DNA of 64,000 nucleotides from a virus (Duplodnaviria > Caudoviricetes), in the IMG/VR virus record IMGVR_UViG_3300031555_004524, positions 32,001-96,000 of that record; one strand, 5' to 3'. Below the pieces are notes generated by a model. The model worked only from the letters and a program-made list of their open reading frames with translations. It ran no database searches and was not told the DNA's origin. How positions within the stretch are numbered: the stretch's first letter is position 1; every line of letters begins with the position of its first letter. The position numbers were made by a program, and so were the translations under genes. Below are positions 9,690 through 48,003 of the stretch, one piece after another.

Positions 9690-11285
9690 TCATTCTATTT
9701 TATGAAATAATTTAATTGGTCTATCTGGATCAATTTTATTAAATAGTCTAATAAGATTAGGTTTATTTCGTTCTTCCATTATATCCTTATATTTAGCATG
9801 TAATTCTGGCATAGATAAATTAATTTCAGAACAACTTGTAGCGTATTTTTTATATATAGGTTTTTTGGCATAATAATAATTTCTACAATGCGTAAAACCT
9901 TTATCTACACATTCTATACATATAGTATCATTATCTCGCGTTCTACCCAACAACTGTCTAGCTATAACTTCTGATTTAAAAGGTTCTGCTAACACTACAG
10001 TCATTTTCAATCCTTTTATATCAATTGCAGCTCCAGCAGATTTGGTTGTTGTTAGTATTATTCTTTTAGATAATGCTAATTGTTTATCTTCTTGGGAAAC
10101 TATTGAAGTATATATACCAATATCATTTTCTAATTCTTGGAAGTTTTCTATAAGCCATTGGTATACTGTCATTATTGCATTATTTGTTCCTATATATAGC
10201 ATAAACTTGTCACCAGGAAGTTTTGTTCTCTTTATTCCCATATTCATAATTACAGTTAATAATTTATAAAACTCTGGTTGTTTTACTACATAGTTTGTAT
10301 ATTTATTCCTATCCATTCCATACGTATTATTTCTACAATTACTTATATCCTGCGGAAGAGGATTGCTATTATACATAATTGCAAAATATGCAGTATGTGG
10401 GTCATTTTCTTCATCAAATAAATCTATAGCTGGAACATTTTTAAATGCAGCTTGATATATTTGATTTTCTCTCTGATTTGATTTAGCTGGTGTAGCTGTC
10501 AGATAATATGTTTTATATACATTGGTAAAGAAATCTATCATGCAAATATTATCAAAATCTAAATGAGCTTCATCATAGATCTTAATACCAATCTTTAAAT
10601 ATTCAAATAACTCTCCAACTTTTTCCCATCCATATGTGGACCCATAACTTTGTAAAGTATCGTGAGTTACTAAAAATAGTTTATATCGTTTTAATTTATC
10701 TTCAGTTAAATTTAATAATCTAAATATTGTTTTAGATCCTTCTATAATACAAATATCTTTTTCATTAATATTTGTATATTCAACTGTTCTATTTTTCCAC
10801 TGTTTTAACCAATCCACTGTATCGGTTATAACTATTCCTCTAATAGAAAAATATGCCAAAGTTGCTATAGTTATATACGTTTTGCCTTTTCCTGTAGGAA
10901 GGTTTATGGATAACTGAGATTTCAAAGCAGTATATCTATACTCTCCTTGACCAACAGAAAATCGTAATGCTTCTTTCTGAACTTCATCTCTAGGTAAAGT
11001 CTTTATATAAATATCATTAAAACACTGATATTTATAACATTTATTCTCTAAAATTGTAGCGTCTGCATTTAAGCATTTTTCGACAAACCAAATATCTATA
11101 CCTCTCGGGAGGTATAGTTTCTTATTTTTCTTATCATAATAGATTCCCATATAATAAAAACTATGAGTTACAGGATTATATAATTTGAAATTATTTTCCA
11201 ATTGTGTAGAATCTCCAAATTCATAATTATTTATTATAACTGCACTATTCGTAACTTCTATTTTATTCATAATATTTTTCTCCAC
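9690..11285 (-). CDS. SF2 DExH helicase (UvsW-like)
   Basis: Walker A PTGKGKT, DEAH, TAT motif III, QLLGR motif VI. Confidence 0.85.
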   Translation of the reverse strand: MEKNIMNKIEVTNSAVIINNYEFGDSTQLENNFKLYNPVTHSFYYMGIYYDKKNKKLYLPRGIDIWFVEKCLNADATILENKCYKYQCFNDIYIKTLPRDEVQKEALRFSVGQGEYRYTALKSQLSINLPTGKGKTYITIATLAYFSIRGIVITDTVDWLKQWKNRTVEYTNINEKDICIIEGSKTIFRLLNLTEDKLKRYKLFLVTHDTLQSYGSTYGWEKVGELFEYLKIGIKIYDEAHLDFDNICMIDFFTNVYKTYYLTATPAKSNQRENQIYQAAFKNVPAIDLFDEENDPHTAYFAIMYNSNPLPQDISNCRNNTYGMDRNKYTNYVVKQPEFYKLLTVIMNMGIKRTKLPGDKFMLYIGTNNAIMTVYQWLIENFQELENDIGIYTSIVSQEDKQLALSKRIILTTTKSAGAAIDIKGLKMTVVLAEPFKSEVIARQLLGRTRDNDTICIECVDKGFTHCRNYYYAKKPIYKKYATSCSEINLSMPELHAKYKDIMEERNKPNLIRLFNKIDPDRPIKLFHKIE

Positions 11286-11367
11286 GATTTTTTTATCATG
11301 TATTACTATAAAGTTAATTATTTTGTCATATTTTACAGGGATAGTATAATACTATCCCCGAATATAT

Positions 11368-11502
11368 TTATTTTACTAAATGAAGAACTCCAGCTTCTAT
11401 TAAAATATTTTCTACTTCCATAATTATATCTGGATGTTTTTCTCTTACGTCTTTTATGCTAAGTTTACCTTGCATGATTTGTGTAGCTAAATAATCAGCC
11501 AT
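11368..11502 (-). CDS. Small XkdX-like tail-associated protein (44 aa, not in ORF track)
   Basis: GGAGG SD; MADYLATQIMQGKLSIKDVREKHPDIIMEVENILIEAGVLHLVK. Confidence 0.5.
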   Translation of the reverse strand: MADYLATQIMQGKLSIKDVREKHPDIIMEVENILIEAGVLHLVK

Positions 11503-11527
11503 TCTTTTATCCTCCCTTTGCATGTTC

Positions 11528-11824
11528 TTATAATTTACCATTCATTATTGATTCATTCAATAAATTCTCTATAGAATCTAATCTATCAGTTACACTTAAT
11601 GGTCTAGCTTCATATGTATAATAAACTTCTTTAGTTTTTCTATTATATCTAGGAACGGCAATACGCCCTTTAATTTGTTCTGGTTTTGGAATTTCTCTTA
11701 CAAAAAATCCACTCTCCAGTAATTCTTCTTTAGTTAATCCTAATCCATGTTTAGGATCAAATGGAACTCTGTGCATTAACGTTACAACGTCATCTTTTCC
11801 AACTTTAATATATATATCAGTCAT
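11528..11824 (-). CDS. Putative tail-fibre assembly (XkdW-like) protein
   Basis: PFDPKHGLG..EELL..G..V.EIP.P motif seen in Firmicutes phage tail modules; late promoter upstream. Confidence 0.45.
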   Translation of the reverse strand: MTDIYIKVGKDDVVTLMHRVPFDPKHGLGLTKEELLESGFFVREIPKPEQIKGRIAVPRYNRKTKEVYYTYEARPLSVTDRLDSIENLLNESIMNGKL

Positions 11825-11931
11825 CTTTCAATCACTCCTTTGTAAAGATATTATGATTATTACAATGTTGCGTTTATCATTTTTTCACATCCTTATAATA
11901 TATTCTTTTAAAAAGAAAGGAGTATGTGTGA

Positions 11932-12171
11932 ATGAAAAACAAGAATAAGAAAGAAAATATGTTTCAAGATATTACACTCACTATAGCAGTCATAATAGCA
12001 TGTTGCATAATGGGGCAAATATACAATGAAGATTTAAATTTTCTACATATTTATACTGCAAAAGACTATTTCTTATATTCGTGTGGATTATTTATAATAA
12101 TCAAAATTGTATATAATACTGTAATGCATATTCATCGAGCTTTGGTTAATTCAGGAGACAATAAAGGGTAG
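11932..12171 (+). CDS. Small two-TM membrane protein
   Basis: Two hydrophobic segments; AGGAG SD; late-promoter variant at 11886. Confidence 0.5.
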   Translation: MKNKNKKENMFQDITLTIAVIIACCIMGQIYNEDLNFLHIYTAKDYFLYSCGLFIIIKIVYNTVMHIHRALVNSGDNKG

Positions 12172-46296: not shown

Positions 46297-46549
46297 AATA
46301 TCACCTCAAATTTGTAATTCTACATATTTAAATCACTTTGTTTCTCTCTTCGTCATATAAATTCATTTCATAATGTATCATATATGAGGATACATGCATA
46401 CTGCTTTTATCTATATGCTTCATACGATCAAAATCATAGAGATATAACCAAAAGATCCATTTAACTGACAATCTTAAATAGATTCAGATGTATCTTTAAC
46501 ACCTTCAACTTGAATACATTTTTTGTTTTCTTTCACGATATAAAACTTC

Positions 46550-46858
46550 TTATATTACGTTGATAGGTATAATTTCTAATAGTTGATCTTTGTATATATT
46601 GTCTTCCATATAAAGTATTAAATCTTTAGCCAAATTTTCAGGAGATGTTTGATCTTTTGTAATATTAACTCTAGGGTTAGGTATATAATTATAATTTTCA
46701 CCAATATACTGAGCAAGCTTATTTTCATCACCCTCATTGACAAGTGTTATTATATCATTTTTCATTTTTCCTAATAAAGATGGAGATTCCGAAGCTGCTA
46801 ATACAGTTCCATTAAAGTAATCTATATCCCAAATGGCTAACTGCAAAATATAAATCAT
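46550..46858 (-). CDS. Small paralog-family protein
   Basis: IYIL..AASESPSLLGKMKNDII. Confidence 0.6.
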   Translation of the reverse strand: MIYILQLAIWDIDYFNGTVLAASESPSLLGKMKNDIITLVNEGDENKLAQYIGENYNYIPNPRVNITKDQTSPENLAKDLILYMEDNIYKDQLLEIIPINVI

Positions 46859-47157
46859 CAGTCTTCCTCCTTTTTTCTATCTTTTAATAAACAAAAATTT
46901 TCAGTAATCATCTCAGATATATTATATACACATTGATTAGTTTTGACCATTGTATTACTAAAATGCGGTATCCTAGATTTTCCTATTATTTTATCTAATT
47001 TTTCTTTTGATAACGGTTTTAGTTCATGATGAATTATAGGCACATCGTACATGCTACTATTATCAATATTATACACATGATCATATTCTTTATCTGATTT
47101 TATAAAATCTACACTCAATTCATTTTCTTGTATATTATTGGTATTCATAAAAATCAT
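46858..47157 (-). CDS. Hypothetical protein
   Basis: 99 aa, translationally coupled. Confidence 0.55.
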   Translation of the reverse strand: MIFMNTNNIQENELSVDFIKSDKEYDHVYNIDNSSMYDVPIIHHELKPLSKEKLDKIIGKSRIPHFSNTMVKTNQCVYNISEMITENFCLLKDRKKEED

Positions 47158-47507
47158 CCTCTATATATAATATATCTAACTGGATATATCATAAATGTGG
47201 TATCAATGTTATCCAATATATAATCTTTCCAATCAAATATTGTATTTTTTAGATCTTCGGTATCAAATATATACATACTATCTTTAGCATTTTCACTATC
47301 TGGAATCTCTGTTTCTGGATCTTGTATATCATATAGTAATCTTAATAGATTATCCGCATCTTCATTTTTAATAAGATAAACGATTTTATTCTTCATTTCA
47401 TCTAATATGTCATAATTTTCACTAACACAAATCATTGAAAAATATGAGGTATCTACATACTTTTCATATAACTGAAATACTAATACGTATTTATAACTAG
47501 CTAACAT
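47154..47507 (-). CDS. Small paralog-family protein
   Basis: YVL..CVSENYDILDEMKNKIV; GGAGG SD. Confidence 0.6.
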   Translation of the reverse strand: MLASYKYVLVFQLYEKYVDTSYFSMICVSENYDILDEMKNKIVYLIKNEDADNLLRLLYDIQDPETEIPDSENAKDSMYIFDTEDLKNTIFDWKDYILDNIDTTFMIYPVRYIIYRG

Positions 47508-47568
47508 TGTATCCCTCCCAAATTCATAAGAAATAAGAGGACTACATCTCTGCAGTCCTCATTAATAT

Positions 47569-48003
47569 CTATTCTTTCTTCTCTATTTTTGTAAATAATT
47601 TTCGATGGAATAAATATTTTTCTGATTGTTCTCTGAGTTCTACACTACGGTAGAAATCCTTCATTGGATCTGCTACTCTCATTTCTTCCTCAGGAATCTT
47701 TCTAAACAATGGTTTATATTCAACCTTCTCAATCTTTCTGATAGGTCTATGCATAAATAATCTAGTCTTCTTTTTAGCTTTCTTTACAAATTCTAATTTA
47801 AGACCCATTGTTTTCAAATATGCATTAAGAATTTCAACATTTCTATTTTTAGAATTACTGTCAAGATTAATATCAACATGATATGGATCTCCAGTGATTG
47901 CTTCTCTCATTAAACGTCTAGCTTGTGGAGATACTGAATGAGTCATTAAACATTGCACAACATTTGCTGCACCCATGTGTAATAAATCGCCAGTTTCCAT
48001 TTC
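47569..48003 (-). CDS. RNAP beta C-terminal subunit, exon 2
   Basis: Begins GAA ATG GAA ACT (EMET), completing RFG|EME; ILNAYLKTMGL matches the RpoB C-terminus. Confidence 0.88.
   Translation of the reverse strand, partial: EMETGDLLHMGAANVVQCLMTHSVSPQARRLMREAITGDPYHVDINLDSNSKNRNVEILNAYLKTMGLKLEFVKKAKKKTRLFMHRPIRKIEKVEYKPLFRKIPEEEMRVADPMKDFYRSVELREQSEKYLFHRKLFTKIEKKE

Follow-up and report, generated by a model that had tools for sequence, protein, structure and literature searches.

The PIP box and APIM on PCNA, and QL[SD]LF on the bacterial beta clamp, are each one linear motif common to many unrelated DNA enzymes, and all of them have been kept across domains of life. In phage T4, the clients gp43, gp55 and gp33 bind the clamp gp45 through their C-termini, which couples replication to late transcription, and the tails of gp45 clients are interchangeable (PMC2988020). 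A ligase–clamp paper points, as far as its listing in PMC7824862 tells, to a loop of T4 ligase as a further clamp-binding site. PhiKZ has Rhc (RNase H-clamp), a clamp-derived, non-ring processivity subunit that needs no loader and contacts the polymerase over a folded interface of 1,800 Å2, with no shared linear motif described (PMC13648687), and chimallivirus import through Imp1/PicA relies on surface recognition, not on terminal signals (PMC13282480). Here we analyse a window of 64,000 nucleotides, positions 32001-96000 of the IMG/VR record IMGVR_UViG_3300031555_004524, which is a complete genome of 248,149 bases with 29% GC. In this window, replication proteins and proteins of the non-virion RNA polymerase (RNAP) share the peptide LFxK[IFL], which appears to be the form that a lineage-private docking tag takes in this phage, probably a beta-strand peptide. 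A single phage-encoded reader of the tag is likely.

Enrichment and placement of the LFxK[IFL] peptide

A preliminary description of this DNA had counted about 12 copies of the motif in nine unrelated proteins. All nine indeed carry it at the places given, with 13 strict LFxK[IFL] copies, and the identities then proposed for the helicase, beta'C, PolB-N, betaN, ligase and betaC were confirmed by PHROG and Pfam profiles together with orthology to phage AR9. The carriers in the window are as follows (− and + give the strand; HTH, helix-turn-helix; aa, amino acids).

9690-11285, −: SF2 (UvsW-like) helicase, AR9 g156 ortholog; C-terminal tail tags at 9732-9746 and 9696-9710
15257-17377, +: non-virion RNAP beta' C-half (beta'C), AR9 g154; C-terminal tag at 17357-17371
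30672-32633, −: PolB-N (exonuclease together with a portion of the palm), AR9 g132; tail tags at 30798-30812, 30759-30773 and 30723-30737
36678-36980, −: Zn-ribbon protein 1; N-terminal tag at 36957-36971
38582-38854, −: Zn-ribbon protein 2; N-terminal tag at 38828-38842
39169-40965, −: non-virion RNAP beta N-half (betaN), AR9 g105; tag at 39196-39210, near the C-terminus
41109-41759, −: HTH protein, 216 aa, conserved; tag at 41559-41573 (residues 63-67)
42527-44872, −: NAD-dependent DNA ligase; tag at 44513-44527, inside an insertion of ~70 residues that AR9 lacks
47569-48000, −: non-virion RNAP beta C-half (betaC), 3' part, AR9 g089; tags at 47695-47709 and 47584-47598

Across the predicted proteome of the genome (244 proteins, 75,480 aa), 20 strict matches were found, compared with 3.9 ± 2.0 expected from 1000 within-protein shuffles (maximum 10), and a narrower core pattern gave 13 compared with 0.2. 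When 426,098 four-letter patterns were ranked without bias, LFxKI and LFxKxE came out among the top six, with p ~1e-6 each, a value that would not by itself survive correction over that number of patterns. About four of the 20 genome matches are expected by chance, and these are probably internal ones such as the copy in the tape measure protein. The impression that copies are mostly terminal or in linkers held up, with 13 of the 20 matches no more than 15 residues from the start or 50 from the end of the protein (p 3e-5 against an expected share of 0.21), as did the enrichment over structural proteins (12 matches in the 11,354 aa of DNA and RNA enzymes versus 1 in the virion proteins, which total 23,654 aa; p 1e-5). 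Thus, the same short hydrophobic motif is present on unrelated DNA enzymes, polymerase and ligase included, and sits in flexible termini or inserted loops. Codons vary among the copies, in line with the protein-level conservation described before, which argues that the tag is not a DNA repeat.

Outside the window, copies were found at the C-terminal end of DnaB (genome 115989-117833) and at the start of the AR9 g242 ortholog, and looser ones at the starts of SbcD and of a sigma-like subunit. The g242 ortholog carries its tag N-terminally here (genome 157359-158195) and C-terminally in relatives (e.g. L113:5282-6094), showing that the tag can move between the two ends of one protein. As tags occupy both termini as well as internal loops, no free end is needed. 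The proposal that the motif marks replication and non-virion transcription proteins stands in so far as they share it; it does not extend to primase, RecA, gyrase, RecD, RNase H, RusA and beta'N, which are untagged.

Further variants and gene arrangements were seen around these carriers. The 3' part of betaC has two more variants, LFMH (47746-47760) and LFHR (47599-47613), and the 5' part of the gene lies at 49990-51780. The gene is split at its RFGEME motif, between RFG and EME, by an insertion (48004-49990) with a TnpB/Cas12f-like gene at 48186-49448; at the same site, the relative L219 has TnpB and L216 an insertion without it. The sigma-like non-virion RNAP subunit (AR9 g226 ortholog) spans the contig ends (genome 247829-248149 plus 22-2421); an HNH gene at 969-1604 interrupts it, and the subunit starts with a loose variant of the tag. 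A core Cas4/PD-(D/E)XK-like exonuclease has a loose variant that is C-terminal here (genome 122485-123216) and N-terminal in relative G007 (L061:11438-12169).

Lineage-private tags at conserved slots

Family profiles place most core genes of the genome on AR9, including orthologs of the split PolB, the virion RNAP and all five subunits of the non-virion RNAP, which are AR9-like hallmarks; PolB-N is ~30% identical to that of AR9/PBS1. Closer relatives are uncultured, several of them from gut or rumen-type assemblies, and for one core gene the clade comprises 472 clusters at 50% identity. One ortholog sits in a Lachnospiraceae bin, which gives no more than a hint of the host. We compared 15 related records of gut-type jumbo phages in full. 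The preliminary description had held that a lack of conservation in orthologs would speak against the motif. LFxK itself is indeed not kept; what persists is the slot, while the peptide in it changes in all carriers together. As the slot is inherited and the peptide changes jointly in each lineage, its absence from orthologs does not refute a shared tag. PolB-N orthologs, for example, hold no LFxK but another peptide, repeated two to four times in the same tail. In each of the 15 relatives one peptide, the genome's own, fills the corresponding slots, namely the C-termini of the helicase, beta'C, PolB-N, betaN, betaC and DnaB, and the N-termini of the Zn-ribbon proteins.

VIxF: G001, G002
FMxR: G003
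MCxIV: G004
PMxF: G005
AFSY: G006
KPF: G007
KIW: G008
LFxY: G009, G012
GMxY: G014
CVxF: G015
VIxI: G016
PIxF: G017, G018

The relative's own tag is present in the SF2 helicase tail of 11 relatives, and orthologs of both Zn-ribbon proteins begin with the tag of their lineage. For a held-out test, a matrix was learned unsupervised from three tails and scored on four other proteins in 15 genomes. The own genome ranked first in 10 of the 15, a count that includes the present genome, whose motif defined the slots; in one it came second, behind its sister, and four failed. In a second test, matrices from seven slots were applied to slots never used in training. The own tag appeared in the ligase insertion (10/14), the PolB-C insertion near residue 380, which AR9 lacks (8/12), the sigma-like N-terminus (8/12) and the SbcD N-terminus (7/15), but in only 20 of 356 virion orthologs. 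The same search in the relatives gave none in RecA (0/14), gyrase B (0/15) and primase (0/12), nor in orthologs of RecD, RNase H, RusA and beta'N. Three genes untagged or weakly tagged in this genome also belong here.

8303-9052, −: AR9 g161 homolog; untagged here, with an N-terminal own tag in four relatives
12203-14371, −: PolB-C; untagged in this genome
32747-33697, +: core protein of unknown function, 316 aa; N-terminal slot with a weak variant here

Relatives of the 316-aa protein often show clear N-terminal tags of their own. Its gene is divergent to PolB-N, occurs in 15 of 15 relatives and has no family match. The g161 homolog has a tandem strand–helix pattern that is PC4-like by eye, which makes it a possible single-stranded DNA-binding protein. 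Its C-terminal SFFDK-type motif is kept across lineages, unlike the tag, and resembles a classical clamp- or partner-binding tail.

Turnover of the tag is fast. The nearest relative (62% PolB-N identity) already uses a different one, while the LF tag reappears on a distant branch, as similar tags likewise do. Repeated peptides are visible, read by eye, in most PolB-N tails from ~70 lineages; an automatic tag caller was noisy, placing 13 of 69 tails beyond the 95th percentile of the shuffles. AR9 has no tag, and lacks the tails as well as the ligase and PolB-C insertions. Our literature searches found no published description of this tag.

The HTH protein shows the peptide in a different setting. 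Its C-domain is an XRE-like HTH, and its N-domain has no known fold match in PDB or BFVD beyond one uncharacterised ortholog. In single-chain structure predictions, made for this protein and for its HU-like neighbour, residues 63-66 occupy one fixed column, a beta-hairpin strand of the folded N-domain, and this column predicts the client tag (permutation p < 1e-5 over 22 genomes). For seven genomes picked before looking, the exact p was 15/5040 (p 0.003), and the z of 7.7 was the best window across ~48 core families, the next best being 4.6. Only the first two residues are well predicted, while positions 3-5 track loosely; strict prospective patterns mostly failed, L218 outright, and weight-matrix scoring of the hairpin gave a mean rank of 5.2 compared with 5.5-7.7 for control segments, which is not decisive. 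The HTH protein goes beyond the role of a further carrier, since its copy belongs to the fold as a fixed strand and follows the tag. Enrichment, placement at slots, client set, concerted change by lineage and tracking by the HTH strand are thus direct observations.

Candidate receptors and alternative explanations

From these we infer binding, strand geometry and one receptor. The tag would be built of two adjacent hydrophobic residues, a free position and a fourth anchor residue, usually with a basic or proline residue before them. Its carriers would include PolB-N, PolB-C and four of the five non-virion RNAP subunits (betaN, betaC, beta'C and sigma-like), together with DnaB, the SF2 helicase, ligase, SbcD and small DNA-binding proteins. 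All tags may dock as a beta-strand in one pocket of a single phage-encoded hub on phage DNA, with several copies per client providing avidity, and replication and late-transcription enzymes would then be tethered together like T4 gp43, gp55 and gp33 on gp45. A pocket that drifts fast, with every client following, would yield a private code per lineage, and one such receptor would be the reason why the slot is kept while the peptide changes jointly in its carriers. The earlier idea of a docking code for a hub is well supported as regards a shared protein-level docking motif, with the hub itself at the stage of candidates. Two neighbours of carriers are receptor candidates.

30144-30665, −: clamp-like candidate, 173 aa, fast-evolving, directly after PolB-N; no tag
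41850-42437, −: tandem HU/IHF-like protein, acidic (isoelectric point 4.4), adjoining the HTH gene upstream

We tentatively take the clamp-like gene as the leading candidate and most likely hub; another protein in this role is less likely, and the HTH protein or its HU-like neighbour slightly less so again. The clamp-like gene is found in 180 of 195 PolB-N loci, and its product evolves twice as fast as PolB-N (mean identity 20% versus 42%), with conserved lysines and no tag matches. By eye, its helix–strand pattern fits a shortened two-domain clamp, judged against PCNA and gp45. In hhalign against a 102-sequence gp45 profile, the candidate ranked first of 104 families, yet at a probability of 4.8% and E 0.008, and profile comparisons with T4 gp45, the PhiKZ Rhc clamp and PCNA_N were weak or blank. 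Complex prediction with the PolB-N tail (residues 598-645; 82-row alignment) scored 0.00, which is evidence neither way. The clamp identity is thus a lead, and several results weigh against a clamp-centred docking code. The product has no Pfam, PHROG or PDB sequence match, and covariation between tag and clamp-like columns was not above the PolB-N phylogenetic control with either automatic or hand-called tags. A single-sequence phmmer search with T4 gp44 and gp62 found no clamp loader in this genome, although scattered AAA+ matches appeared in four relatives. Helicases and core RNAP subunits are not usual as clients of a clamp, while RNase H, a typical client, is untagged. Finally, tags are weak in some lineages, and G009, G012 and G016 failed the held-out test.

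A competing explanation, which we hold to be rather improbable, makes the HTH protein the hub, alone or together with its HU-like neighbour: its hairpin strand would fill the groove of a neighbouring copy, and clients mimicking that strand would join a DNA-bound scaffold by strand exchange. The tracking by residues 63-66 fits this, as do the XRE-like HTH and a gene that occurs in 14 of the 15 relatives, is missing from tag-less AR9 and is always paired with the acidic tandem-HU gene. However, tracking is equally expected of a client that displays its tag on a hairpin, and the loose positions 3-5, the failed strict patterns, the undecided weight-matrix test and the lack of any covarying pocket for residues 63-66 within the HTH family (effective number of sequences 71) argue against it. 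The protein is a candidate for founding client or hub, and its HU-like neighbour a second receptor candidate. A more speculative extension is that the tag is the self-recognition code of a chimallin-free replication compartment, in which a DNA-bound HTH/HU-like scaffold would assemble via its own hairpin strand and capture only enzymes bearing the mimic. If so, the replication and transcription machinery of one phage would be closed to co-infecting relatives. That the tag serves import into, or addressing to, a nucleus-like or condensate replication compartment, recognised by a gate or scaffold that is no homolog of PicA, has a small probability in our view. It would explain why separate subunits of one RNAP are each tagged and why carriers act on phage DNA, its lineage specificity would shut out co-infecting relatives, and tubulin is present here and in 11 of the 15 relatives. 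Against this, RecA, gyrase, primase and beta'N would also need entry yet are untagged, tagged genomes such as the complete G008 and G017 show no tubulin match, and known chimallivirus import uses no terminal signals (PMC13282480). For the import factor suggested before, one of chimallin type found no support: in five complete genomes, searches of low sensitivity gave no match to chimallin (phrog_4795, E 1; the control matched nowhere, and family profiles do not match PhiKZ gp54) or to PicA/Imp1 (phrog_3141; remote homologs could be missed). The tubulin/FtsZ-family gene lies at 54356-55519, next to a gene for a 306-aa protein (53436-54356), in an AR9-like phage without detectable chimallin.

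Short hydrophobic–basic peptides at either terminus resemble degrons, and a GroEL homolog is a core gene here; a degron or chaperone-recognition motif (for phage GroEL or an AAA+ protease adaptor), or binding to a host protein, would nevertheless be surprising. Against this stand the copies inside internal loops and a folded hairpin, and the restriction to DNA-acting proteins. The peptide also changes between close relatives, and such fast rewriting makes a conserved host pocket such as that of DnaN, which had been named for a partner screen, unlikely. The explanation we consider least likely of all is a compositional or DNA-level artefact, from AT-rich codon bias or a dispersed repeat. The low GC content favours L, F, K and I, and some matches are chance-expected, but the excess over composition-preserving shuffles is fivefold, codons vary, and GC-richer tags (MC, GM, PI, CV) stand at the same slots in relatives. 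It is already refuted by the held-out prediction, the own tags in untrained slots and the HTH tracking.

Comparison with known systems

A docking tag of this kind would amount to a code of protein interaction in which a dozen unrelated essential enzymes change together, in each lineage throughout a large uncultured clade, whereas conserved clamp motifs show no such concerted rewriting. It bears on how PhiKZ/AR9-related jumbo phages, long thought to be without a classical clamp, organise processive replication and its coupling to late transcription, and offers a simple molecular basis for the incompatibility of related phages. With cognate and non-cognate tags available from many genomes, the code could be tested in vitro without culturing the phage.

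The Bacillus phages AR9/PBS1 (Takahashivirus) are the closest cultured relatives, with a split PolB, two multisubunit RNAPs and orthologs of most clients. However, the AR9 orthologs have neither the tails nor the ligase and PolB-C insertions, and no HTH, HU-like tandem or clamp-like gene is detectable in AR9. PhiKZ, from a related jumbo-phage group, has a related split PolB (N, C), and its Rhc is an example of a hidden clamp fold in the absence of a loader. In contrast, RNase H is here a separate 225-aa protein, profiles match well only the RNase H part of Rhc, and the clamp-like candidate has no match to the Rhc clamp domain. Chimallivirus import resembles the present system in its phage-specific choice of DNA and RNA enzymes, but no chimallin or PicA match was found in this clade, and the cargo types RecA and topoisomerase are untagged here.

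The gp45 motifs of T4 and RB69 are similar in that the polymerase, a loop of the ligase and a late factor of sigma type all bear one short hydrophobic peptide. In T4 this epitope is acidic and C-terminal and is kept family-wide, whereas the tag described here is basic or neutral, may be N-terminal, C-terminal or internal, and occurs in up to five copies per protein. It is also present on core RNAP subunits and two helicases and is rewritten per lineage; a gp44/62-like loader was not found in this genome, and the receptor is a candidate. With the PIP and beta-clamp motifs it shares the tool-belt logic, while its consensus matches neither and is genome-private. In summary, the tag would work like a clamp tool-belt motif but differs in consensus and conservation.

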